Shown here in pieces: positions 8,886 through 49,379 of a stretch of DNA of 64,000 nt. The stretch spans positions 5,093 to 69,092 of the forward strand of contig JACRHW010000017.1 of assembly GCA_016217555.1 (NCBI GenBank), given 5' to 3'. A model generated the notes under the pieces. It did not search any database. It was not told the origin of the DNA and worked only from the letters and a program-made list of their open reading frames with translations. Numbering within the stretch: position 1 is the stretch's first letter; each line of letters opens with the position of its first letter. Source of the stretch: Parcubacteria group bacterium. GTDB lineage: Bacteria > Patescibacteriota > Minisyncoccia > UBA6257 > JACRHW01. The translations under genes were made by a program, and so were the position numbers.

Positions 8886-10061
8886 CTATTTTATATTTTT
8901 TGCGATTTCTACATCTCTTATTTTGTACATTCTTTTCATTGCAATCGATTTCATTGCGCGATTTGTGGTGTAGCCTATGATGGCGAGTGCGAGGAAATAC
9001 ATCATTCCAAATAGAGTAAATGTAGGGGGTTTTTGCGCAAATAGGCTGAGAATGCTTGCCCCTACCCCCATAGAGGTTACTACGGTGAGGCTTTGTATGG
9101 AGTTGTTCGTGCTCTGTGCTTGGAGGGTTTCAAAGAGTTTTATGGCCGAGGCAACATAATTTTTAGTCATTGTCCACAAATCCTTAATATATTCTAATGT
9201 GTCGCTCAATGCCTCATAGCGGAATTGTAAGACGTTGGCAAAATGACGAAGTGATTCTTTGTTTTTAAAGATTGTTTCGCGTGTATGAATGTAGGTACCC
9301 ATTTGGTTAATGCGCGCTTCGATAAAATTGATTGTCTTATTGTAACTCTCTATTTCATTTTTGAAGGTGCCTATATCTTTTCCGCGTATTTCACCGCGTT
9401 CTTTGACCTCTGCAATTTTTTCCCAGATAAGACGATGAAGATTTAAATAACGATGTACTTGTCCTTTGAATTCGCGTATAAATATCTGCTCATTAATAAA
9501 TTGTCCTATATTTGAAAATGGTTCTGAGAGGCTGTTAATAATATAAAGAATATCTCCTCTATAGATTTCAAACGAATCTGCTTTGATTTCAAAATACTTT
9601 TTCTGATGAAAATCCTTAAGAAGTTGTTCTATATCTTCTTTTGTCGCATTGTCGAGTACCACAAAATAAGGATAAATCGTTTTTATGTTCGCCAACTCTT
9701 TTGGTACAGGTGCTCCAAGGCTAAAAATGTAGCTTAACGCGGGGGAGAGCTTTTCTTCGTAGTAGGAGGTAAGTGCCTTAATATCTTTCTCAAGTTTTGA
9801 TTCGGGGTTCTTGTTAAGGACAATCAGGCCATCTTCATAAATAGTGATTTCAATCCCTTGTTTTTCGATGAGTTTTACATATTCAAAATCTTCTATGTTC
9901 ATCTCAAGAGAGTGGATTCCGAGCGCTTTTTGAAGGGTTTTTAGTTTTTCTTTGTCCAAATCCAAAGGCGATTCCGCATCGCGAAGAAAATCATATATTT
10001 CCGAGAGGTGTAGGGTCGTTCTCTGAAACCAACCCCTAATATATATTTTTTGTATAGTCAC
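8886..10061 (-). CDS. hypothetical protein, soluble N-terminal domain + coiled coil + two C-terminal TM helices (CorA/DUF155-like architecture, no GMN motif)
   Basis: 391-aa ORF; architecture only. Confidence 0.6.
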   Translation of the reverse strand: MTIQKIYIRGWFQRTTLHLSEIYDFLRDAESPLDLDKEKLKTLQKALGIHSLEMNIEDFEYVKLIEKQGIEITIYEDGLIVLNKNPESKLEKDIKALTSYYEEKLSPALSYIFSLGAPVPKELANIKTIYPYFVVLDNATKEDIEQLLKDFHQKKYFEIKADSFEIYRGDILYIINSLSEPFSNIGQFINEQIFIREFKGQVHRYLNLHRLIWEKIAEVKERGEIRGKDIGTFKNEIESYNKTINFIEARINQMGTYIHTRETIFKNKESLRHFANVLQFRYEALSDTLEYIKDLWTMTKNYVASAIKLFETLQAQSTNNSIQSLTVVTSMGVGASILSLFAQKPPTFTLFGMMYFLALAIIGYTTNRAMKSIAMKRMYKIRDVEIAKNIK

Positions 10062-13048: not shown

Positions 13049-13055
13049 TAGCTTA

Positions 13056-13172
13056 AGAAATCAAAACGCAAAACGCAAAATTACAGCTCAAAACTAAAAA
13101 CTATCTTACTATTTTTTAAGTTTTAATTTTTTTGGTTGTAGTTTTGCCTTTTGACTTTTAAGTTTTGAATTT
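13056..13172. repeat. 'caaaa-word' long palindromic intergenic element, copy A1
   Basis: arms built of caaaac/caaaat words (aaatcaaaacgcaaaacgcaaaa ... ttttgccttttgacttttaagttttga); related to 14887-14986 and 37034-37135. Confidence 0.8.
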
Positions 13173-13231
13173 CTACTGTGCTTAACTACAACTTTAATTC
13201 ACGGTTTCGTTTTGTGAAAGCGTCTACGATT

Positions 13232-14878: not shown

Positions 14879-14886
14879 CCTCGGTA

Positions 14887-14986
14887 AAATAAAAACTCAA
14901 AACGCAAAAGTCAAAACTACAACTAAAAACGTAAAACTTTTGATTTTTGAGTTGAAGTTTTGTGTTTTGACCTTTACGTTTTGAAT
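14887..14986. repeat. 'caaaa-word' palindromic element, copy A2
   Basis: aaaactcaaaacgcaaaagtcaaaactacaactaaaaac ... tttttgagttgaagttttgtgttttgac. Confidence 0.8.
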
Positions 14987-14993
14987 TTATACT

Positions 14994-18369: not shown

Positions 18370-18975
18370 GTGGAGGATTGGGAAATGTTATTGGTGGAAT
18401 GGTTTGGGATACTTTTTGCAATTGTGTGGATTGCGTGGGTGGTACGTGAGTATCTCTATGTATATAAACTTGCTTTGGTTTTTTGGGTGCAGTATTATGC
18501 GGTTACTACGTTTGCAAGAAAACGATGTGTATATGACGAGTCTGTATTAGGAGCACGTGTTTTGATATATGTAGAGGATGGTGTCGTGCTTCGCGACCTT
18601 GAATTGTTGCCACAGTGCATTGAGGAGATATATGAAGATTTTAATTTATTTGTCGTTTTCTTTAAACTTGAGGAGTTCCTCTCTGATAAAGACCCACACG
18701 ACGTAACCGCTGTTTTTTATAAAGAAAACACGTATAATATCCTTGATCGATTGTGTCATATGAATACACGTGGATTTTATCTGCCAGCTTTAAGAAAAAT
18801 GTCGCTCAGGACAAATGCAATACTTTGTGATCTTGACGGTATGCTTGGAAAAACGGTGCGCCACGAGTTTTTTCACTACTTGGTACATGCATTTTTTGTG
18901 AAGGGTGCACTTACGTATGAACAAGAGGAGGGGTGTGCGCGTGTGTTTGAGGAGTGGCGGTCGATGGCAAAATAA
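18370..18975 (+). CDS. membrane-anchored hypothetical protein with C-terminal HExxH (paralog 2)
   Basis: N-terminal TM; TVRHEFFHY motif. Confidence 0.6.
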   Translation: MEDWEMLLVEWFGILFAIVWIAWVVREYLYVYKLALVFWVQYYAVTTFARKRCVYDESVLGARVLIYVEDGVVLRDLELLPQCIEEIYEDFNLFVVFFKLEEFLSDKDPHDVTAVFYKENTYNILDRLCHMNTRGFYLPALRKMSLRTNAILCDLDGMLGKTVRHEFFHYLVHAFFVKGALTYEQEEGCARVFEEWRSMAK

Positions 18976-19061
18976 TTTTCATTATAATGACCCCATGTAG
19001 ATGGGGCTTTGTTTTTTCTTTGGTTTTATGACATAGTTACAATAATATCTTGAATTAAGAA

Positions 19062-19203
19062 GTGTGTATTTCGAACCATTCCGCAGACGCGAAGCTGGGT
19101 GTTGTCAACCCCGAGTGGAAACGAGTTGGGTTGACAACGGAGCGTCTGCGGGTGGAGTGAGTCGCCGCGGGAGTGACGAACGCGTGAGAAACACACATTT
19201 CGT
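19062..19203. repeat. structured ~140-nt repeat, family F copy 1 (opposite orientation to copies 2 and 3)
   Basis: ccgcagacgc...gttgtcaacccc...gggttgacaac...gcgtctgcgg nested hairpin bracketed by gtgtgt/acacac. Confidence 0.85.
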
Positions 19204-19296
19204 AATTCAAGGAATAATATGTCTTCGAGTATTTTTTTATTTATCGTATTCATCTCCCTATTTTATATAGGTGTTCTTTCAATTTTTATCTAAGAT

Positions 19297-21804
19297 ATGC
19301 AGAAATATAACCATGAAAAAATAGAGAAGAAGTGGCAGAAGGAGTGGGCGAATGATAATTTTGCTGCCTGGCGTGTAGAGGAGGGGGGTAAGAAAAAAAA
19401 GAAGTATGTTCTTGATATGTTTCCGTATCCTTCGGGGGATGGGTTGCATGTAGGACATATTGAGGGATATACCGCTTCCGACATTGTGAGTCGTTTTTCT
19501 CGGATGAGAGGATACAATGTACTTCACCCTATGGGATGGGATGCTTTTGGGTTGCCTACTGAAAATTATGCTATCAAACACAAGGTGCACCCTGCGAAGG
19601 TAACTGAAAAAAATGTTAATAATTTTCGCGCTCAGTTACAGCGTATGGGGTTTAGCTATGATTGGTCGCGTGAGGTAAATACTACAGACCCCGAATATTA
19701 TAAATGGACACAATGGATTTTTTTAGAACTTTTTAAACGCGGGCTTGCTTATGAGGCGGAGGTACCAGTCAACTGGTGTCCCAGCTGCAAAACAGTGCTT
19801 GCAAATGAGGAGGTGATTGATGGAACGTGTGATAGGTGCCACTCCGAAGTTATTCATAAAAATTTAAAACAATGGATTCTTAAAATTACTGCTTATGCAG
19901 ATAGGCTTCTTTCTGACCTTGATGATCTCGATTGGCCAGAACGTATTAAGGAGATGCAGAGGAATTGGATTGGAAAATCTTATGGGGCGCTTATAAAATT
20001 TCCTCTAGCGAATTTCAAATTTCCGCTTTCAGTTTTTACGACCAGACCCGATACGTTATTTGGTGTAACCTATGTGGTTCTTGCTCCAGAACACATACTC
20101 ATACAAGAGTTAAAAGATTATATTACGAATTGGGATGAGATCGTGGAATACGTAGGTGTAGCACGAAATAGGAGCGAACGTGAGCGGCAAGAGAAGAAGG
20201 AAAAAACAGGAATTGAACTTAGGGGTATAAGTGTTATCAATCCTGCAAATCAAAAAGAAGTTCCCGTGTGGATTGCTGACTATGTACTTATGGGGTATGG
20301 CACAGGGGCGGTAATGGCAGTACCCGCGCACGATGAGCGTGATTTTGCTTTTGCTAAGAAATATAGACTTCCTATAACAACGGTTATCCAGCCACTTTCT
20401 TATGAATGGGATGTTACGGTAGCGGCATACACCGACGAGGGGAGAATGGTTAATTCGGGAGAGTTTGACGGATTAGGTTCGGAAGAGGCGAAAAGGGCAA
20501 TTGTTGTAAAACTTCGGGAGCAAGGTTTCGCAGAAAATACGGTAAAATATAAACTTCGTGATTGGGTGTTCTCGAGACAAAGATATTGGGGAGAACCCAT
20601 TCCGCTTGTATTTTGTGAGGCGTGTGCGGAAAGAGTGAGAAAACAGAAAACAGAAAACAGAAAACAGAATGTGAACTTGGGAGAGATATTAAACCCCGGA
20701 TGGATGGCGGTGTCGGAGGGAGATTTGCCGGTTACCTTACCAAACGTAAAAAATTATGAGCCGACGGGAAACGCGGAGTCACCACTTGCTGGGATAACAA
20801 CATGGGTGAAAACGACATGTCCAAGGTGTGGAGGGGTTGCGCGACGGGAGACAAACACAATGCCACAGTGGGCGGGATCAAGCTGGTACTACCTCGCTTA
20901 CGTTATGCGAGGGAATTCAAAATTCAAAATTCAAAATTCAAAATTGTTTCAGTACTGGTTGCCTGTCGATATGTATATCGGGGGAGCAGAACATGCGGTG
21001 TTGCACCTTCTCTATGCGCGTTTTTGGCACAAGGTGTTGTATGATGCAAAAATCGTTTCTACCAAGGAGCCTTTTTATGCATTACGAAATCAGGGTCTTA
21101 TTCTTGGTCCCGATGGGGTAAAAATGTCTAAATCACGTGGAAATGTGATTAACCCCGATGCGGTGGTAAGGGAGTATGGTGCTGATACTCTTCGTATGTT
21201 CGAGATGTTCATGGGCCCACTTGAGGATTCAAAACCATGGGATATACGTAGTATTGTTGGCGTGCGAAGATTCTTAGAGAGGGTTTGGGGGTTACAAATA
21301 AAAATTAAAGATCAAAAATTAAAGATCAAAAATGACGGTGAAGACATAAGGAGACTTATGCATCGGACAATAAAGAAGGTGACGAAAGATATCGAGGAGA
21401 TGCGTTTTAATACTGCAATTTCTGCGCTTATGGTATATGTAAACGCGCTTGGAGGACAGGAGGATATTTCAAGGGAATCTTACACAACACTTCTTGTTTT
21501 GCTTGCGCCATTTGCCCCACATATCACTGAAGAATTGTGGCAATTGATGGAAAACAAAAATTCAATTCACTTTGAAAAATGGCCTATCTATGATCCGAAA
21601 CGTATCATAGAGGAGTATGGTATTCTTGTGGTACAGGTAAATGGGAAAACAAGAGATTCCATTGAGGTGGCAAAAGGTGTTTCTGAGGAAAATGCTTTGG
21701 AAATTGCCACCAAAAGGGATCGTATTGCTTTTTGCCTTAAGGGGAAAGAAATTATACGTGTGGTGTATGTGCAGAACAAACTTATCAATATTGTAGTAAA
21801 ATAA
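19297..21804 (+). CDS. leuS: leucyl-tRNA synthetase
   Basis: HVGH (HIGH) and KMSKS motifs, CP1 editing domain, full-length similarity. Confidence 0.98.
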   Translation: MQKYNHEKIEKKWQKEWANDNFAAWRVEEGGKKKKKYVLDMFPYPSGDGLHVGHIEGYTASDIVSRFSRMRGYNVLHPMGWDAFGLPTENYAIKHKVHPAKVTEKNVNNFRAQLQRMGFSYDWSREVNTTDPEYYKWTQWIFLELFKRGLAYEAEVPVNWCPSCKTVLANEEVIDGTCDRCHSEVIHKNLKQWILKITAYADRLLSDLDDLDWPERIKEMQRNWIGKSYGALIKFPLANFKFPLSVFTTRPDTLFGVTYVVLAPEHILIQELKDYITNWDEIVEYVGVARNRSERERQEKKEKTGIELRGISVINPANQKEVPVWIADYVLMGYGTGAVMAVPAHDERDFAFAKKYRLPITTVIQPLSYEWDVTVAAYTDEGRMVNSGEFDGLGSEEAKRAIVVKLREQGFAENTVKYKLRDWVFSRQRYWGEPIPLVFCEACAERVRKQKTENRKQNVNLGEILNPGWMAVSEGDLPVTLPNVKNYEPTGNAESPLAGITTWVKTTCPRCGGVARRETNTMPQWAGSSWYYLAYVMRGNSKFKIQNSKLFQYWLPVDMYIGGAEHAVLHLLYARFWHKVLYDAKIVSTKEPFYALRNQGLILGPDGVKMSKSRGNVINPDAVVREYGADTLRMFEMFMGPLEDSKPWDIRSIVGVRRFLERVWGLQIKIKDQKLKIKNDGEDIRRLMHRTIKKVTKDIEEMRFNTAISALMVYVNALGGQEDISRESYTTLLVLLAPFAPHITEELWQLMENKNSIHFEKWPIYDPKRIIEEYGILVVQVNGKTRDSIEVAKGVSEENALEIATKRDRIAFCLKGKEIIRVVYVQNKLINIVVK

Positions 21805-22339: not shown

Positions 22340-22352
22340 ATAAAACAAAGTC

Positions 22353-22432
22353 TTTGTATCTAGTATCTTGTATCTGGTATGTGTTCATAGGGGCAGATAA
22401 ATACTAAATACAAGATACTATATACTAACTAC
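22353..22432. repeat. 'gtatct-word' palindromic element, copy C1
   Basis: tttgtatctagtatcttgtatctggtat ... atactaaatacaagatactatatac. Confidence 0.75.
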
Positions 22433-22441
22433 TAAGTAATT

Positions 22442-23152
22442 ATGATTACTTTTCATATTATTACTATCTTTCCTGAAGCACTTGAGGGATATTGTAATGC
22501 ATCTATATTGAAGCGTGCGCAGGTGAAAAAGCGTATCAAAATCATTCTTCATAACCTTCGTGATTTTTCGAAGGACAATCACAAATCTGTTGATGATCGT
22601 CCCTTCGGTGGAGGGCCCGGTATGGTACTCATGGTAGATCTTCTCGTGGGGGCGCTGAAGCATATCCTCAAAAAAGATTTCAAGTTAGATGCAGGAGGAA
22701 AACTTGTGGTGGATTCAACAAAATATCGTATTGTACTTTTCGACACCCGCGGAGAACCATTTACCCAAGAAATTGCCCGTTCATTTTTGCCCAACCCTAT
22801 AAGCCATAAGCTAAAAGCTAAAAGCTCTCACATTATTCTTATCTGCGGTCATTACGAAGGGGTCGATGAACGTATCAAGGAATTTTGTACAACGGATGTT
22901 ATTTCTATTGGTAATTATGTTCTTTCGGGAGGAGAGGTGCCTGCCATGGTGGTAGTAGATGCTGTTACACGCCTTATCCCTGGTGTTTTAGGAAATGAAG
23001 AATCTATTGAAGAGACAAGGGTAGTTAAGGGATATGCAGTATACACCCGCCCGCGCGACTATTCTCCCAAAAGGAACATTGTATGGAAGGTACCAGACCC
23101 TCTTTTTTCGGGAGACCCTAAAAAGATAGATGAGTGGAGAAGAGAGCATTGA
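22442..23152 (+). CDS. trmD: tRNA (guanine37-N1)-methyltransferase
   Basis: full-length TrmD similarity (DDRPFGGGPGMV, SIGNYVLSGGE). Confidence 0.95.
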   Translation: MITFHIITIFPEALEGYCNASILKRAQVKKRIKIILHNLRDFSKDNHKSVDDRPFGGGPGMVLMVDLLVGALKHILKKDFKLDAGGKLVVDSTKYRIVLFDTRGEPFTQEIARSFLPNPISHKLKAKSSHIILICGHYEGVDERIKEFCTTDVISIGNYVLSGGEVPAMVVVDAVTRLIPGVLGNEESIEETRVVKGYAVYTRPRDYSPKRNIVWKVPDPLFSGDPKKIDEWRREH

Positions 23153-35732: not shown

Positions 35733-37034
35733 ATGGTTAAAAAATCAATTTTGTTTTTATTAGGTTTTATTATCATATTTTTAGTAGTGTTTGGTGTCGT
35801 AAAGAAATATCATATTTTTTCACGGTTTGTATCTCTACGTGGTTCGTCGTTGTCTGAACTGTCTTTTGAGGATGCATTAAAACAGGGTTTTCAGAAGAAA
35901 ATTCAGAGAGAGGTCCTCCTTGCCACAACATCAGACAAAATAACACTAGAAAGGAAGGAGGAATATGTTGCCGTAGTAGACTACGAACAGAGAGTAATTC
36001 GTGCCATAGAGAAGTCGTCGCCTGCGGTAGTGAGTGTGATTATCTCTAAAGATGTGCCAGTACTCGAGCAGTATTACGCAACCCCTCTTAATAACGATCC
36101 ACTTTTCCAAGATTTTTTTGGGGGACAAGTACAGATTCCTCAGGTGCGTCAAGGGGGGGTAGAGCGTAAGGAGGTGGGAGGGGGCTCGGGGTTTATTATT
36201 TCTTCCGATGGTCTTATCGTGACTAATAAACACGTTGTTTCTGATCCGAATGCTTCGTATATTATATTGCTTAATGATGGGAAGAGATTTCCTGCAAAGG
36301 TGCTTGCGAAAGATGCACAGCAGGATATGGCAGTTCTTAAAATAGAGGCAAGTGGGCTTCCTACTCTTTCGTTGGGAGATTCTGATACGGTGAGAATCGG
36401 GCAAACGGCAATTGCAATCGGAAATTCATTGGGTGAATTCCGGAATACTGCTTCTACCGGAATAATTTCCGGATTGGCGCGTACTATTACCGCAGGAGGG
36501 GGTGGTATCGTGGAGACACTTCAGGGAGTTATTCAGACTGATGCGGCAATCAATCAGGGGAATTCGGGTGGGCCACTTCTTAATCTTCGTGGTGAGGTAA
36601 TTGGTGTTAATGCGGCAATAGCTCAGGGTGCTCAGAGTGTTGGATTTGCCATTCCTATCAACAAAGTAAAACGTGCTATTGAGGATGTGAAAGCTACCGG
36701 AAAGATCTCCGCTCCCTACCTTGGAATACGGTATGTTATTCTTGATGAGATAGTACAAAAAAAAGAGGGGCTAGGTGTTTCTTATGGTGCTTTCGTCCGT
36801 AGTGGTGAGAAGGGTGGCGTAGCCATTGTTCCCAATTCTCCTGCAAAGAAGGCGGGTATTAAAGAAAGGGATATTATACTCGAGGTTAATGGCAAGAAAG
36901 TGACCAAGGACGTTCCCTTGACCGATATAGTAAGCCAGTATAAGGTAGGGGATACGTTGACGCTTAAGGTCTTGCGTGGGAGCGAGACGATTGAAGTTAA
37001 AATAACCCTAGAACAAAGACCAACAAATCTTTAA
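35733..37034 (+). CDS. HtrA/DegP-family serine protease with PDZ domain
   Basis: catalytic triad context TNKHVV / DMAVLKI / GNSGGPLLN; C-terminal PDZ. Confidence 0.92.
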   Translation: MVKKSILFLLGFIIIFLVVFGVVKKYHIFSRFVSLRGSSLSELSFEDALKQGFQKKIQREVLLATTSDKITLERKEEYVAVVDYEQRVIRAIEKSSPAVVSVIISKDVPVLEQYYATPLNNDPLFQDFFGGQVQIPQVRQGGVERKEVGGGSGFIISSDGLIVTNKHVVSDPNASYIILLNDGKRFPAKVLAKDAQQDMAVLKIEASGLPTLSLGDSDTVRIGQTAIAIGNSLGEFRNTASTGIISGLARTITAGGGGIVETLQGVIQTDAAINQGNSGGPLLNLRGEVIGVNAAIAQGAQSVGFAIPINKVKRAIEDVKATGKISAPYLGIRYVILDEIVQKKEGLGVSYGAFVRSGEKGGVAIVPNSPAKKAGIKERDIILEVNGKKVTKDVPLTDIVSQYKVGDTLTLKVLRGSETIEVKITLEQRPTNL

Positions 37035-37135
37035 CTCAAAAATCAAAATGCAAAACTACAACTAAAAACTGAACGAACCAGCAAAAAAGTTTTATGGTTT
37101 TTAGTTGAAGTTTTGACTTTTGATTTTTAATTTTT
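37034..37135. repeat. 'caaaa-word' palindromic element, copy A3
   Basis: ctcaaaaatcaaaatgcaaaactacaactaaaaac ... gtttttagttgaagttttgacttttgattttt. Confidence 0.8.
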
Positions 37136-37141
37136 TACACC

Positions 37142-46088: not shown

Positions 46089-49000
46089 ATGGGTAATTCC
46101 AAATTTAAAAAAGTTGCGACGAAAGTTGTTGCAGTAAGCCTTTCGCTTACTACCGCAATTTGGCTTTCTGGCGCGGCTATGGCGCTTCCTTTGGCAGCGA
46201 AAGCGGCCACTGTTGATGAGCTCATGGCACAAATCACTGCACTTCAAGCGCAGGTTGCTAGTATGCAGGCTCCAGTAGCTTCAAGTGCGTATTCTTACAC
46301 ACGCAATCTTACGGTGGGATCGCGTGGAGCTGACGTAACAGCTCTTCAGGATACATTAATCTCTGGTGGATATCTCAAAGTATCTGCAACAGGATACTTT
46401 GGTGCTTTGACTAAGGTAGCTGTAAAGGCGTGGCAGGCAGCAGCCGGACTTCCTTCAACAGGATATTTCGGTCCTATGTCTCGCGCAAAGGTAGCAACCG
46501 TTGGTGGAACACCTACCTCAGGTACAACACCAACACCAGGCATAACACCTACCCCAGGTACAACACCAGTTCCAACTGGCACTGGCTTGGCCGTAGCAGT
46601 TGACGCATCAAATCCGGCAGCGGGTAGTTTTCCAGCTGGTGGAAGTCAGATTCCATTCTTGAAATTGAAGTTCACAGCAGGTTCAGCGGATACAACCGTA
46701 ACTGCAATGAATGTATATCGTGGAGGACTCTCTAGCGATAACGATATCTCGAATGTTTATTTGATGGATGGTTCATCGGTTTTGGCAACCAATCTTGGTT
46801 TGTCGAGCGGAAAAGCTTATTTCTCTCTCGCAACTGGATTATTTACAGTTAAGGCGGGAACAAGCAGGGTTGTTACTGTTGCTGCAGATATTTCTGCAAC
46901 AAACACAGCATCTCATGCTTATACATTTGGTGTAAATTCAGCAGCTGATATTACTCCATCTGCGGGTGTTACAGGTACATTCCCAATGACGGGTAATACC
47001 ATGACAGCCGTTTCAGTAACAAATCCGGGACTTGCAACACTTACAGTTGCCAGCGTTTCAACAGGTGGTTCTGTAAACGCAGGAACAACTGGTTTCTTAG
47101 CTGGCCAATTCTCTCTACAGTCCGCAAATAGTGCAGTAAGTGTAAAATCTGTTAAGTTGACAGATGTAGGAACCAATACTCATTCATCAGATATCTCAAA
47201 CATCAAATTGATGAACGGAGGAACACAGGTGGGTGCAACCATTGTGAATGCAAATTCAGATGGTACGGTTGTGTTTAATCTTTCAAGCAATCCTCTACGG
47301 GTTGCATCAGGTCAGACAATTAACCTTTCTGTATATGCTGATGTTGTAGGAGGTGTTAATCGAACACTTCGCTTCACAGTTCAGCACTCTTATGATGTTA
47401 CCGCTACCGACATGACATATAATGTTGGTGCTGGTCTTCTTGGAACATATCCAGTACAGGCTTCTTCTGTAAGTATCAGCTCTGGCTCTTTGGTGGTTAG
47501 CAAGAACGCAGCTTCTCCAACAAACTATATTGCTCGTGGTGCAACCAATGCAACATTGGCAAAGTTTGACTTTAATGCTTCTGGTGAAGCAGTGAGGATT
47601 ACTGCTATTACCTATCAGGTTGGTACTTATAGTGCTAATCAAGAAAATGCAGTATGGAATAACTTGAAGCTCGTTGATGATCAGGGTGTTCAAATTGGAA
47701 CAACCGCTACAGCCGTTTCTTCTGATAGCGTTTCCACAACACAACACTCAACGGCCCTTACTGGCTTGAACTACATTATTCCTGCAAATACAACTCGTTC
47801 GCTTTCTATTGTTCTTGATACTGTATCAACATACGCAGGAAGCATGACAGGAAGTATTACTTCAATAACAGCTCAGGGTTACACCTCGCTTACAGCTATT
47901 CCAAATCCTGGTCCAGATACTTCAACACACGCAGGGAATGCTCTTAGCGCATCTTCAAATCCATTCGTTGCTTCACTTAACAATGGTGTAGGTGCAATTA
48001 GTAGTGTTTCTGGTGCACAAGGTATCAAAATAGGATCTTTTGCCTTGGCAGCAGGTGCAGCAGAAGGAGTAAATGTTACAAGTCTTACCGTGAAAACCGG
48101 TTCGGCCGTTTCATCTCAATATCGTAACTTGAAAGTTATGGTGGGCAGTACTCAGCTAGGTAATACGAACTCAACGCTTACTGATAGTACTGAGTATTCA
48201 GTTTCAGCTTCTAATATCATGATCCCAGTAGGTGGACAGATTGTTGTAGATGTCTATGCTGACACCGTTTCTGGTGCAACATCGTCAGCTGCAGCCGTTC
48301 TTCTTTCTGGTGGTTCAGCAAATGGTGCTTCAACCAACACAACGAGGACTCTTACTAATTCTAGCGGCACAAAGCTTACGAGCTCTGTTACTGTAACTGG
48401 TCAGGTTGATACTATAACAGCATCAGGGAATCTTACAGACGCGTTAGCTCCCTCACCTGTAGTGTCCCAACAAGTTGCTATGGGTGTAACAGGCGTGGTT
48501 CTTGGAACGTTCAAACTTTCTGAGACAACCAATAGCGAGTCAATTGATGTTACGAGCATTGTTGTAAATTCAACTTCAACATCTGCCAACGACATCAAGA
48601 ACCTTAGGCTTATGAATGGAACAACTCCAGTTGGTTCATCTGTGGCAGGTCTTCCTGGTTCAGGTGCACAAGCAACTACCTTTACGATACCTATCGATCC
48701 TGTCACTGGTCACTCTGTCTTTATTGTTCCTCAGAATAACTATGTAACTTTGAGTGTTGTTGCTGATACTAATGATGCAACAGGTGGTGCCGCTTCTAAT
48801 GACACCATAACAGTTGGTCTTGGTGCAGTTACTGGTCAAGGACATTCCTCGGCAGCACCTGCAAATGCAACACCTACAAGCGTAGACAGTTCCGCAACCT
48901 TTACTCTTCATCGCGCAACAATGAGTGTTGCCGTTGCTTCCGGAAGTTATGTGGATAACAGCATTACGGACAACAAGATCGTGGCAAAGTTTAGCTTTAC

Positions 49001-49379
49001 TAATTCAGGGAATTATGATGCTACTATCGCTACATCTTCTATCCAACAGGTTGGTGCAGCGGTAACATCGACTGGTGTTACCTTCACCTTCTTTGATGGA
49101 GACACGAATGCTTCAATCGCAACAACTGGTGCAGTTACAGCAAGCACTTCTGCTGCTGTAGTAACATTTAGTACTGCGGTAACGGTTGCGAAGAATACAA
49201 CGAAGACTATTATAGTGAAAGCGAATCTTTCTACTGCAAGTTATACCTATAGCAATCCAGCTAAGTCATATGCAGTCAATCTTACGGGTTTTGCCTGGGG
49301 AGATGGCTCAGTGACAGGTATTTCTCCTGACACAAGCAAGATTACTTTCCCAATTTCTGGTCCTTCAATGTCCCTGTAA
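46089..49379 (+). CDS. large cell-surface protein: signal peptide, peptidoglycan-binding (PG_binding_1-like) domain, TP-rich linker, at least 6 S/T/A/G/V-rich beta-type repeats
   Basis: LTVGSRGADVTALQ...GYFGALT...AWQ...GLPSTGYFG pattern; repeated ...V.V.S+.L......D+.N+KLM.G.T.+G blocks. Confidence 0.8.
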   Translation: MGNSKFKKVATKVVAVSLSLTTAIWLSGAAMALPLAAKAATVDELMAQITALQAQVASMQAPVASSAYSYTRNLTVGSRGADVTALQDTLISGGYLKVSATGYFGALTKVAVKAWQAAAGLPSTGYFGPMSRAKVATVGGTPTSGTTPTPGITPTPGTTPVPTGTGLAVAVDASNPAAGSFPAGGSQIPFLKLKFTAGSADTTVTAMNVYRGGLSSDNDISNVYLMDGSSVLATNLGLSSGKAYFSLATGLFTVKAGTSRVVTVAADISATNTASHAYTFGVNSAADITPSAGVTGTFPMTGNTMTAVSVTNPGLATLTVASVSTGGSVNAGTTGFLAGQFSLQSANSAVSVKSVKLTDVGTNTHSSDISNIKLMNGGTQVGATIVNANSDGTVVFNLSSNPLRVASGQTINLSVYADVVGGVNRTLRFTVQHSYDVTATDMTYNVGAGLLGTYPVQASSVSISSGSLVVSKNAASPTNYIARGATNATLAKFDFNASGEAVRITAITYQVGTYSANQENAVWNNLKLVDDQGVQIGTTATAVSSDSVSTTQHSTALTGLNYIIPANTTRSLSIVLDTVSTYAGSMTGSITSITAQGYTSLTAIPNPGPDTSTHAGNALSASSNPFVASLNNGVGAISSVSGAQGIKIGSFALAAGAAEGVNVTSLTVKTGSAVSSQYRNLKVMVGSTQLGNTNSTLTDSTEYSVSASNIMIPVGGQIVVDVYADTVSGATSSAAAVLLSGGSANGASTNTTRTLTNSSGTKLTSSVTVTGQVDTITASGNLTDALAPSPVVSQQVAMGVTGVVLGTFKLSETTNSESIDVTSIVVNSTSTSANDIKNLRLMNGTTPVGSSVAGLPGSGAQATTFTIPIDPVTGHSVFIVPQNNYVTLSVVADTNDATGGAASNDTITVGLGAVTGQGHSSAAPANATPTSVDSSATFTLHRATMSVAVASGSYVDNSITDNKIVAKFSFTNSGNYDATIATSSIQQVGAAVTSTGVTFTFFDGDTNASIATTGAVTASTSAAVVTFSTAVTVAKNTTKTIIVKANLSTASYTYSNPAKSYAVNLTGFAWGDGSVTGISPDTSKITFPISGPSMSL

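Follow-up and report, generated by a model that had tools for sequence, protein, structure and literature searches.

Short patches of the leucyl-tRNA synthetase (LeuRS) of this Parcubacteria group bacterium, an ultra-small member of the CPR, appear to be rewritten repeatedly by repeat-making mutation while the gene remains unbroken. The leuS gene in the window, which is the whole 64,000-nucleotide stretch of DNA that was analyzed, contains three perfect tandem arrays with units of 7 or 14 nt, and the corresponding patches of related leuS genes carry arrays of other units or decayed tracts. Our leading explanation, held with confidence only a little better than even, is that the blocks are translated heptanucleotide microsatellites that are turned over by slippage or template switching and filtered by selection. 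All coordinates below refer to the window, and all features lie on its forward (+) strand.

The host gene (19297-21804) is an intact leuS, as judged from its ORF of 835 codons, its motifs, its Pfam domains and its structure match. Both catalytic motifs of the 835-residue product are intact in the translation (HVGH at 51-54 and KMSKS at 609-613) and occupy positions that are invariant or nearly so across the LeuRS alignment. The Pfam domains PF00133, PF13603 and PF08264 represent the catalytic, editing and anticodon-binding domains, with the CP1 editing domain PF13603 at 222-405 (E = 2.2e-65) and PF08264 at E = 2.5e-23. These results bear out the statement in an earlier note on this DNA that the reading frame and the catalytic motifs are preserved. 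The LeuRS of T. thermophilus (1H3N) matches the protein with E = 2.7e-228, and comparison with 1H3N reveals that the window enzyme is devoid of the leucine-specific domain (about 583-636 in T. thermophilus). One Parcubacteria MAG encodes a LeuRS that is 100% identical to that of the window, and the gene neighborhood FolD-TatD-leuS-PAP2-trmD is conserved. The structural descriptions below are based on an AF2 model built on 98 sequences (pLDDT 88.9); an earlier AlphaFold model built on 14 sequences (pLDDT 64.7) was not used.

Tandem Repeats Finder locates three arrays in leuS, each within 2 nt of the coordinates at which the earlier note had reported in-frame repeat blocks. All three are 100% matches with zero indels and lie in frame within the ORF. 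Block 1 (20638-20669) is a perfect 32-nt (AGAAAAC)x4.6 array that encodes R448-N458, and block 2 (20914-20945) is a perfect 32-nt (AATTCAA)x4.6 array that encodes N540-L550. Block 3 (21300-21333) is a perfect 34-nt array that encodes I668-N679 and consists of 2.4 copies of the 14-nt unit AAAAATTAAAGATC, which is a compound of two heptamers (AAAAATT and AAAGATC). The translated peptides RKQKTENRKQN, NSKFKIQNSKL and, over I668-K678, IKIKDQKLKIK are exactly those that had been described.

The three peptides had been assigned to variable surface loops, and the AF2 model and the alignments uphold this assignment for blocks 1 and 3 and contradict it for block 2. The block 1 peptide begins five residues past the second cysteine of the C440-x2-C443 knuckle and is predicted to form the end of helix 441-453 plus a coil. 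It falls within an insertion of ~24 aa that is found in 39 of 120 homologues, and this region is four codons longer in the window than in loci L001-L004. The block 3 peptide is predicted to form a coil (670-681) that links helices 650-669 and 682-700 where the anticodon-binding domain begins. This coil has the lowest pLDDT (59) of the whole model, and the array stops exactly where a further periodic codon would read TAA. Block 2 stands between WYYL and WLPVD (pLDDT 75-81) and overwrites the near-universal segment LRYxDPxN...D..KEKY at a nearly constant length (21 versus 20 aa). This native segment is also found in T. thermophilus LeuRS, and E. coli LeuRS presumably has a recognizable form of it. 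A faint candidate for a fourth, decayed array (period-7 score 0.61) lies at 19996-20028 and encodes K234-L244 (KFPLANFKFPL); AAATTTCC recurs there with 21-nt spacing in a beta-hairpin ahead of VFTTRPDT. At this site, P0054 and P0074 have perfect arrays (KFQISNFKFQI), whereas the perfect run of L087 is shorter and the array of L085 is degenerate.

Do the arrays switch leuS on and off? The earlier note held that a copy-number change would frameshift the gene. Computed changes of one or two copies in either direction indeed shift the frame and truncate the product to 456-679 aa, but a change of three copies leaves the frame intact at blocks 1 and 2. Non-triplet units whose single-copy gain or loss truncates the protein are typical of phase-variable genes, and the arrays could in principle form a contingency locus in which slippage toggles LeuRS or yields truncated isoforms. 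However, the host is not a dispensable surface or restriction-modification gene but a single essential housekeeping gene, and its neighborhood is conserved. Moreover, numerous short arrays (4.6 copies) lie within the gene, switching it off would kill the cell, and all 34 array-bearing LeuRS homologues that we identified (see below) are in frame. A contingency locus is thus highly improbable, and the arrays are not an on/off switch. An assembly or sequencing artifact is scarcely credible: the contig comes from a metagenome-assembled genome, which is nothing specific, and the same phenomenon occurs in independent NCBI, ENA, JGI and Logan assemblies, always in frame and with a length of 32 nt that is far below read length.

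The arrays are restricted to one period. The window has four perfect arrays with 2.5 or more copies, all of period 7, compared with 0.00-0.02 per period in block-wise mononucleotide shuffles. When the threshold is relaxed to at least 80% identity, the window contains seven arrays at period 7, three at period 14 and 0-1 at each other period (shuffles, at most 0.1). These shuffled controls rule out a chance origin. Period 7 is likewise the sole array-forming period across 965 kb of related contigs, where 25 arrays of at least 3.5 copies have period 7 and each other period within 4-12 accounts for 0-3. The lengths of the perfect arrays in these contigs have a narrow second mode at 30-35 nt, and lengths of 27-29 nt or more than 35 nt do not occur. 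Among perfect arrays of at least 22 nt, 25 of 26 lie in the sense orientation within long ORFs, a share that comes from a biased sample because the loci are centered on leuS. Near-perfect arrays are also ~7-fold denser in leuS than in flanking DNA; for this test, leuS in the metagenome loci was located by tblastn, as motif-based detection missed most loci. Thus, the arrays are not predominantly intergenic, and the intergenic period-7 tracts are degenerate hairpin arms. AT-rich arrays are found in GC-rich genomes as well.

Comparison with relatives indicates that the arrays recur at fixed places. Peptides that back-translate to perfect heptamer arrays are present in 34 of 120 Parcubacteria LeuRS homologues and are restricted to eight hot spots, three of which correspond to blocks 1-3. 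In nine leuS genes, each 35-nt stretch with a period-7 match of at least 0.68 falls in a hot spot, and periods 5, 6, 8 and 9 reach a maximum match of 0.64. At four hot spots, the segment has the same or nearly the same length with and without an array (16/16, 18/18, 21/20 and 21/21 aa), and the native peptide is therefore overwritten there. Block 2 is one of these length-neutral sites, at which the change is zero or +1 aa; at the block 1 and 3 sites, array-bearing segments are longer than array-free ones. The unit at block 2 differs in every copy. Over the same codons as the AATTCAA array of the window, perfect arrays read AGATTCC in L001, where the array is (GATTCCA)x4.7, AATTTCC in L085, AAATTCG in L086, AATTGGG in L087 and AATTCCC in L088, and L002 retains a decayed version of the same length. 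The block 1 site contains degenerate period-7 tracts in L001 (score 0.75) and L088 (0.86), and the block 3 site contains (AAAATCC)x4.4-4.7 in L085 and L087. L086 and L088 differ by the same A/G substitution in both copies of a 14-mer. The proposal that the blocks are lineage-specific insertions is rejected by the alignment with relatives, given that the sites are old hot spots common to relatives, with other units or decayed tracts and with conserved lengths.

The perfect arrays are far younger than the species splits, as shown by the divergence at four-fold sites. Identity at these sites is 0.49-0.51 with the closest relatives and falls to about 0.25 with others. With roughly half of the sites differing even from the nearest relatives, no neutral tract of 32 nt could have remained free of changes, and the perfect arrays must have been rewritten recently rather than inherited from an ancestor. 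The earlier view that the tracts are either very recent or constrained was therefore right in spirit, with recent rewriting as the part that follows from the four-fold sites. Among the matches listed, no relative exceeded 83-84% LeuRS protein identity. A scan of a genome collection returned relatives at 49-57% identity among the matches listed, and a metagenome scan with a lineage-specific C-terminal peptide gave a best match of 74% identity over a 94-residue fragment. We infer that these tracts are long-lived and are re-homogenized again and again, in a form of concerted evolution. A rough steady-state estimate suggests that re-homogenization need only be a few times faster than substitution per nucleotide.

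Stepwise slippage cannot operate in leuS because changes of ±7 and ±14 nt truncate LeuRS. This exclusion means that the microsatellite model needs rarer, putative multi-unit or net-zero events. Likely events would include rare multi-unit or net-zero slippage, template switching inside the tract, transient misalignment and out-of-register conversion. Selection would then keep those outcomes that preserve the reading frame and the segment length, whose units are stop-free in all three phases, and whose peptides fit the local structure. Units that are A-rich and G-poor on the sense strand would also be retained, as they yield hydrophilic K/N/Q/S peptides in loops, and a count of bases over the units on this strand gives A 158, T 85, C 71 and G 29. 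Three units amount to 21 nt or seven residues, a period that would suit amphipathic helices and hairpins. Further observations sit uneasily with this model. The 30-35 nt mode of array length is not predicted by simple slippage, near-perfect arrays are concentrated in leuS, AT-rich arrays occur in GC-rich genomes, arrays of several lineages share the junction described below, and block 2 in its array-bearing form has a polyphyletic distribution and sharp boundaries.

In an alternative explanation, the arrays are selfish or laterally exchanged AT-rich mini-cassettes of ~32 nt that spread by short-fragment recombination or a transposition-like process and survive only in frame in tolerant segments, similar to Rickettsia palindromic elements. 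Type-A block-2 segments are scattered on the LeuRS tree, with an identity of 0.674 for A-A pairs versus 0.666 for A-N pairs, and 12 type-A proteins have a type-N nearest neighbor. The best type-A/type-N pair in the initial loci reached 69%, and a closer pair was obtained from the P0100 and P0102 loci. L180 (type A) and L181 (type N) share 85.6% protein identity and DNA flanks of 0.88 and 0.80 identity, and the L180 segment is wholly replaced relative to L181, with a GC content of 0.10 within a gene of GC 0.53. At least five lineages share a GG|AATT junction, which looks more like a transferable cassette. Furthermore, L091 carries a 30-nt GC-rich double hairpin as an in-frame insertion at the block-2 site, the block 2 and 3 words resemble the arms of dispersed palindromic elements, and both a GC-rich Verrucomicrobia MAG and IMG/VR contigs contain 7-nt units matching those of leuS arrays.

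However, no unit is common to two arrays within one genome, as judged from L085 and L087, the loci with several long perfect arrays, and blocks 1-3 have no second copy in the window at up to three mismatches, apart from loose matches to hairpin arms. Net length gain is lacking at four hot spots. We saw neither terminal repeats, inverted ones included, nor target-site duplications that convince (the candidate CGGAAT direct repeat in L180 does not), and no transposase, reverse transcriptase or integrase was detected among the 11 proteins scanned (LeuRS and 10 ORFs, 15.8-26.9 kb). The decayed period-7 tracts at the same places in relatives point to long residence. A shared pool of preferred units also loses weight as evidence of mobility. 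The 49 arrays use 31 units, and the requirement for stop-free, AT-rich units with A at least equal to T leaves just 84 of 2340 unit classes, so the recurrence of units needs no shared source. On balance, we consider mobile cassettes unlikely.

Heptamer arrays also occur outside leuS. A trmD loop (22796-22828) contains a degenerate array (CCTATAAG CCATAAG CTAAAAG CTAAAAG) and is a second orthologous hot spot, with a perfect (CAAAATA)x4.3 array in L002 and a degenerate GATyCAA tract in L003. In this respect, trmD behaves like leuS. Four intergenic hairpins in the window have period-7 arms composed of CAAAAnn-type words. Three belong to a dispersed palindromic family (13049-13177, z = -5.3; 14879-14993, z = -3.8; 37028-37141, z = -6.2), and the fourth lies between PAP2 and trmD (22340-22441, z = -4.6) with (GTATCTA)n/(TAGATAC)n arms. 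The earlier observation that the leuS blocks are made of words akin to those of the intergenic palindromes holds for blocks 2 and 3, which differ from hairpin arms by 2-3 mismatches per 20-21 nt; the 3' arm of the 37028-37141 hairpin and the block 3 word agree in 18 of 20 nt.

The PAP2-trmD hairpin shows just a few differences from its L002 copy outside the loop, despite 50% four-fold divergence. Such conservation, far above that of neutral sites, would be expected if the arrays were nucleotide-level elements that bind a protein covering ~7 nt per monomer, such as a cold-shock-domain protein, or that modulate leuS transcription, translation or mRNA decay. The enrichment of near-perfect arrays in leuS and their uniform length of about 32 nt fit this idea, and CspB is reported to bind heptamer direct repeats with one protein per heptamer (PMC4679880). 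However, no sequence-specific reader fits, because the units are unrelated between arrays and between orthologues. In addition, the strand present in the mRNA is A-rich, whereas Csp prefers T-rich sequences; the arrays, the hairpins and the leuS leader match no Rfam family; and the tracts are decayed or absent in many relatives. A nucleotide-level function is thus very doubtful.

Selection on the peptides is a further alternative, in which K/R/N/Q-rich or 7-residue-periodic segments would have been selected because they serve tRNA binding, solubility or interaction surfaces, with the periodicity of the DNA as a side effect. The conserved segment lengths agree with this view, as do the basic character of block 1, the retention of N-x-x-F-x-I across block-2 units and the mimicry of local structure (a beta-hairpin for KFQISNFKFQI and helices for ISNLKSQISNLK and LEIGNWKLVIKLL). 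Peptide selection nonetheless does not require nucleotide-perfect repeats, and synonymous positions should drift. Moreover, close relatives differ radically in peptide at one site, and intergenic DNA undergoes the same process. We therefore regard peptide adaptation as rather improbable.

How do the arrays compare with known repeat systems? In cyanobacteria, Vioque (1997) reportedly described STRR arrays within the gene for RNase P RNA, which is essential. Like the arrays in this study, STRR arrays are said to consist of heptamers, to form intergenic hairpins as well and to be possible in a variable part of an essential gene; they reportedly use a few fixed unit sequences per genome, whereas each array here has its own unit. 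The TTGGTCA unit in P0022 (a CPR LeuRS, encoding SLVIGHW) and in IMG/VR contig L175 is one that we take to be the STRR2 unit. Frame and stop-codon constraints apply here, unlike in RNase P RNA, because the host gene is protein-coding. The intragenic repeat units of Borg elements are reportedly multiples of three and add sequence. The units in this study, at 7 and 14 nt, differ from that pattern in that they are not divisible by three, and each 7-nt unit is consequently read in all three phases. Otherwise, Borg tandem repeats are similar in being rapidly evolving, recent and perfect and in creating low-complexity peptides within ORFs, and they give rise to disordered protein regions (PMC9879509). 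Rickettsia palindromic elements also form in-frame repeats at structurally tolerant places in the housekeeping genes of a reduced-genome, host-dependent bacterium, but these elements are palindromic, about 150 bp long, grouped in conserved sequence families and length-adding (PMC10969869). The leuS arrays are instead 32-nt direct repeats with unique units, and at four hot spots they bring no net gain in length.

Heptamers are the most abundant class of long SSRs in prokaryotes according to Mrazek et al. (2007), as cited in two later papers, and polymerase-linked slippage, in which the stretch held by the DNA polymerase is involved, has been proposed to cause this excess (PMC4679880; PMC4692102). 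The leuS arrays resemble these SSRs in their head-to-tail 7-nt units and in the prominence of period 7 over other periods. As summarized in those papers, however, surveys place long non-triplet SSRs mostly outside genes, whereas 25 of the 26 arrays considered above lie inside ORFs, with an essential gene among the hosts, and the leuS arrays differ from the surveyed SSRs in replacing native sequence at constant length at four hot spots. GGGAATC and GGGGAYT arrays of Xanthomonas and Nostoc are kept at the same position in a sister species in 83% of cases (Rehm et al. 2015, PMC4692102). They are rich in G, lie mostly between genes and have been explained by the formation of G-quadruplexes (PMC4692102); the arrays described here cannot form quadruplexes, yet they cap at ~4.5 units as well. 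TAACTGA arrays of Beggiatoaceae, cyanobacteria and Bacteroidetes (MacGregor 2015, PMC4679880) are likewise heptameric and phylogenetically patchy, and they are occasionally translated, as LSVISYQ (compare QLSIINY in P0013). However, they have one dominant unit located mostly just upstream of start codons, and their intragenic copies lie at protein termini (PMC4679880), whereas the leuS arrays occupy internal segments of conserved length. Our literature searches turned up no report of heptamer arrays in CPR genes.

One would expect coding sequence, and essential genes in particular, to be cleared of non-triplet microsatellites, and their tolerance in leuS provides a natural experiment on the origin of heptamer arrays, the most over-represented and least understood class of prokaryotic SSRs. 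The reading-frame constraint rules out ordinary stepwise slippage, which leaves creation and homogenization by multi-unit or net-zero steps. More speculatively, a length-neutral "periodic rewriting" might operate in CPR and other groundwater bacteria, through one-step templated repair or a template switch or through the exchange of ~32-nt AT-rich cassettes, and overwrite patches of ~4.5 heptamers in essential genes, preferentially leuS. This broader proposal is a long shot, but if it is true, the preference of bacterial heptamer arrays for four units would reflect the mechanism itself and not G-quadruplexes, the explanation that the present arrays challenge. In practical terms, the tracts are lineage markers and may derail the alignment, annotation and phylogeny of CPR housekeeping genes. 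For the organism itself, fixed patches of a universal enzyme appear to be repeatedly rewritten by non-triplet repeats, which would offer a route for mutation alone to supply new 7-residue-periodic peptides that replace helices, hairpins and loops.

The leucyl-tRNA synthetase gene leuS (19297-21804, forward strand, 835-codon ORF) contains three in-frame heptamer-type arrays on its coding strand: block 1 (20638-20669, AGAAAAC x4.6), block 2 (20914-20945, AATTCAA x4.6) and block 3 (21300-21333, AAAAATTAAAGATC x2.4), each reported by Tandem Repeats Finder with 100% matches and no indels. The leuS translation confirms the peptides that the earlier note had read from these blocks (RKQKTENRKQN, NSKFKIQNSKL and IKIKDQKLKIK, respectively), and the motifs HVGH and KMSKS are present, in line with its statement that the catalytic motifs are intact. 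Pfam detects the catalytic, editing and anticodon-binding domains, and Thermus thermophilus LeuRS (1H3N) matches the window LeuRS with E = 2.7e-228. The window comes from a contig of a metagenome-assembled Parcubacteria (CPR) genome. Its LeuRS matches an NCBI 'Parcubacteria group bacterium' protein at 100% identity, and the next relatives stand at 83%, 82%, 82% and 71%. This LeuRS lacks the leucine-specific domain that is inserted in the T. thermophilus enzyme (residues 607-609 versus 1H3N 583-636); other Parcubacteria LeuRS proteins, including P0010, P0014, P0029 and P0044, carry fused domains, such as NUDIX (PF00293), or larger insertions (945-1122 aa). The neighbourhood is unremarkable, with a gene order syntenic with relatives (FolD-TatD-two unknowns-leuS-PAP2-trmD-zinc finger...tRNA-Lys-SecD-SecF). 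The arrays lie far above chance expectation. Four perfect arrays in the window reach 2.5 copies or more, all of them of period 7, versus 0.00-0.02 per period in shuffles; at 80% identity or more, the window holds seven arrays of period 7, three of period 14 and 0-1 of any other period. We consider it extremely improbable that the arrays are an artefact.

The same sites bear arrays in relatives. In a codon alignment of the window leuS with those of four syntenic relatives (L001-L004), block 2 of L001 is a perfect (GATTCCA)x4.7 array that occupies the same codons at the same length, its unit differing from that of the window at two positions in every copy. L004 carries a degenerate (TAAAAAC)x4, and in L002 an equally long tract is not repetitive and encodes NNTYQAP|NARDF, a decayed form of DSRFQIP|DSRF in L001. 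When 120 Parcubacteria LeuRS proteins were scanned for peptides, 8 aa or longer, that can be back-translated to a perfect heptamer array, 49 arrays were obtained in 34 proteins, all confined to eight hot spots (window residues ~29-36, 234-244, 269-280, 364-373, 448-457, 539-552, 666-685 and 717-744). Block 1 corresponds to 448-457, block 2 to 539-552 (13-14 proteins) and block 3 to 666-685 (12 proteins). DNA from four further relatives (L085-L088) verified perfect arrays, with the block-2 units AATTTCC, AAATTCG, AATTGGG and AATTCCC, and the leuS of L087 alone contains five arrays. Across nine leuS genes, all 35-nt stretches that score 0.68 or higher for a period-7 match fall within hot spots, and periods 5, 6, 8 and 9 reach at most 0.64. 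Relatives without a perfect array often retain a degenerate period-7 tract at the same hot spot, as at block 1 (scores of 0.75 in L001 and 0.86 in L088) and block 3 (0.82 in L086 and 0.75 in L088).

Do the arrays add sequence to LeuRS or replace it? Between conserved anchors, proteins with and without an array have the same median segment length at site 234 (16 aa), site 269 (18 aa) and site 717 (21 aa), and differ by one residue at block 2 (21 aa with an array, 20 aa without). In these four hot spots, arrays overwrite native sequence at constant length. Array-free block 2 is a near-universal LRYxDPxN...D..KEKY segment (type N), found in 80 of the 120 homologues and in T. thermophilus and also recognisable in E. 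coli LeuRS; this segment is lost in type A proteins, which have LAY... followed by an array or its remains. Block 1 lies inside a ~24-aa insertion after the second zinc-knuckle CxxC (C440-x2-C443) that is present in only 39 of the 120 homologues, and block 3 lies in a linker of 20-48 aa, with one outlier of 79. The arrays noticed in the earlier note are real and its reading is partly right. Lineage-specific insertion, for which it proposed a check, is rejected, since relatives share the sites and four hot spots keep their length. At the block-2 site of L091 (~9080-9140), a 30-nt GC-rich double hairpin, TTTCCGCTAAGAGCGGATCCGCCTTTGGCGGAA (peptide FPLRADPPLAE), forms an in-frame insertion relative to L090 and L003 at an array hot spot.

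An AlphaFold model of the window LeuRS (98 sequences, pLDDT 88.9, pTM 0.83) places block 1 at the end of helix 441-453 and the following coil (pLDDT 81-92), block 2 in a small hairpin or loop (pLDDT 75-81) and block 3 in coil 670-681 (pLDDT 59, the protein minimum). Elsewhere in LeuRS, the array peptide KFQISNFKFQI takes the place of a β-hairpin, and ISNLKSQISNLK and LEIGNWKLVIKLL take the place of helices. Three heptamer units span 21 nt, or seven residues, which is a natural amphipathic period. That the array peptides are themselves adaptive is unlikely.

At four-fold degenerate sites, the window shows identities of 0.49-0.51 to L001-L003 and of ~0.25, i.e. saturation, to L085-L088. By our Jukes-Cantor estimate, each lineage has accumulated roughly 0.4 substitutions per neutral site, a span over which a 32-nt tract could not remain perfect, and therefore every perfect array must be recent. 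The arrays share a start position and an AATT core across lineages with saturated neutral sites, and a single A/G change between L086 and L088 is found in both copies of a 14-mer. The simplest reading is that the tracts are long-lived and repeatedly re-homogenised by concerted evolution. By rough estimates, about one-fifth of site-genome combinations are perfect and a perfect 32-nt array persists for ~0.03 substitutions per site until its first mutation, so that rewriting at a few-fold the single-nucleotide substitution frequency would sustain the observed perfect fraction.

Gaining or losing 7 or 14 nt cuts LeuRS short at 456-679 aa; this excludes ordinary stepwise slippage and leaves only multi-unit or net-zero events as survivors. 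A gain or loss of 21 nt stays in frame for blocks 1 and 2. Phase variation, in which copy-number changes would switch the gene, is very unlikely. Because every heptamer nucleotide falls in three codon phases, a unit must be stop-free in each. This holds for 1608 of 2340 unit classes, and only 84 also have at least 5/7 A+T with A ≥ T. With 31 units among the 49 arrays and only 84 eligible classes, there is no need to invoke a shared origin for the repeated appearance of AATTTCC, AAAATCC and AAATTTC. On the sense strand, the units are rich in A and poor in G (A 158, T 85, C 71, G 29). The block-3 14-mer ends at the very point where continuing the period would produce a TAA codon. We somewhat favour a mechanism in which slippage or template-switch turnover of heptamer tracts would be followed by filtering through selection.

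Period-7 repeats are a habit of this genome rather than a peculiarity of leuS. Four intergenic hairpins with degenerate-heptamer arms lie between co-directional genes (13049-13177, 14879-14993, 22340-22441 between PAP2 and trmD, and 37028-37141), with period-7 self-matches of 0.53-0.57 and folding z-scores of -3.8 to -6.2. Block-2 and block-3 words differ from the hairpin arms by 2-3 mismatches per 20-21 nt, and the earlier remark that leuS and the intergenic palindromes use the same kind of words therefore stands. An Rfam search of these repeats and hairpins gave no match. The first, second and fourth hairpins are homologous copies of one ~110-nt palindromic element, whose core AAAACTACAACTAAAAAC is absent from all 179 compared loci. 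The PAP2-trmD hairpin differs little outside its loop from L002 10140-10242, unlike four-fold sites, which are ~50% identical between the two; it is absent in L003 and different in L004, and is either constrained or recently acquired. A nucleotide-level function for the leuS arrays is quite improbable. A single trmD loop behaves like the leuS hot spots, being a degenerate array in the window, a perfect (CAAAATA)x4.3 in L002 and a degenerate tract in L003. The leuS upstream spacer contains a GC-rich, strongly structured insert of ~140 nt (19062-19197; MFE -65 kcal/mol and z = -3.9 for 19060-19230), which has no Rfam match even at E ≤ 1 and is missing from the matching spacers of L001, L002 and L004. 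The window's only notable non-heptamer tandem array is an 18-nt repeat, AACACCTACCCCAGGTAC x3.3 (78% matches, 46508-46567), inside a 1096-aa ORF (46089-49379).

Four features fit poorly with simple slippage and leave room for a cassette or mobile process, a possible but rather doubtful alternative. First, perfect period-7 lengths in 965 kb of related contigs are bimodal (35 of 16-20 nt, 7 of 22-26 nt and 19 of 30-35 nt), with none of 27-29 nt or above 35 nt. Second, in 79 loci picked regardless of array content, near-perfect arrays are denser in leuS (8 in 146 kb) than in flanking DNA (5 in 616 kb; p = 9e-4), and the window alone gives a similar enrichment (p about 1e-3). Third, type A is polyphyletic on the LeuRS tree (A-A identity 0.674, A-N identity 0.666). 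L180 (type A) and L181 (type N) share 85.6% protein identity and flanking DNA identities of 0.88 and 0.80, but their segments from WYYL to W.PVD are wholly different, that of L180 being a degenerate, AT-rich array (GC 0.10, against 0.53 for the gene). Fourth, the same AT-rich units occur in GC-rich DNA. L020, a Verrucomicrobia MAG (GC 0.62), carries units of CPR LeuRS arrays at protein termini: a 359-aa ORF has (AAATCCA)x2.7 at its N-terminus (18495-18540), and a 132-aa ORF has the 32-nt array (AATCCAA)x4.6 at its C-terminus (21111-21142). The IMG/VR contigs L173, L175 and L177 (GC 0.67-0.68) contain heptamer arrays at densities of up to 10 per 11 kb, many within long ORFs, with the AT-rich units AATTTCC, AATCCGC and GATTTCG. 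The cyanobacterial STRR2 unit TTGGTCA is present in these contigs too, and at 6088-6131 of L175 it is part of the inverted pair (CCAATGA)n/(TTGGTCA)n. Quadruplexes are impossible for the CPR arrays.

Among the long SSRs of prokaryotes, heptanucleotide repeats form the most abundant class, and polymerase-linked slippage has been proposed as their origin (Mrazek 2007, as cited in PMC4679880 and PMC4692102). The closest relatives of the leuS arrays are the cyanobacterial STRR, the Xanthomonas/Nostoc GGGAATC-type and the Beggiatoaceae TAACTGA arrays, which are mainly intergenic, with rare intragenic copies at protein termini. [quoted passage not shown] Rickettsia palindromic elements come closest as regards in-frame repeats in housekeeping proteins; these are 150-bp palindromes that add length (PMC10969869). 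We found no description of heptamer arrays in CPR genes in the literature. As heptanucleotide microsatellites, the leuS arrays belong to a general class that is already known; what is unusual is their setting, inside an essential gene and limited to fixed hot spots. The parts worth following are the mechanism of length-neutral rewriting, the ~32-nt ceiling and the bias toward leuS.
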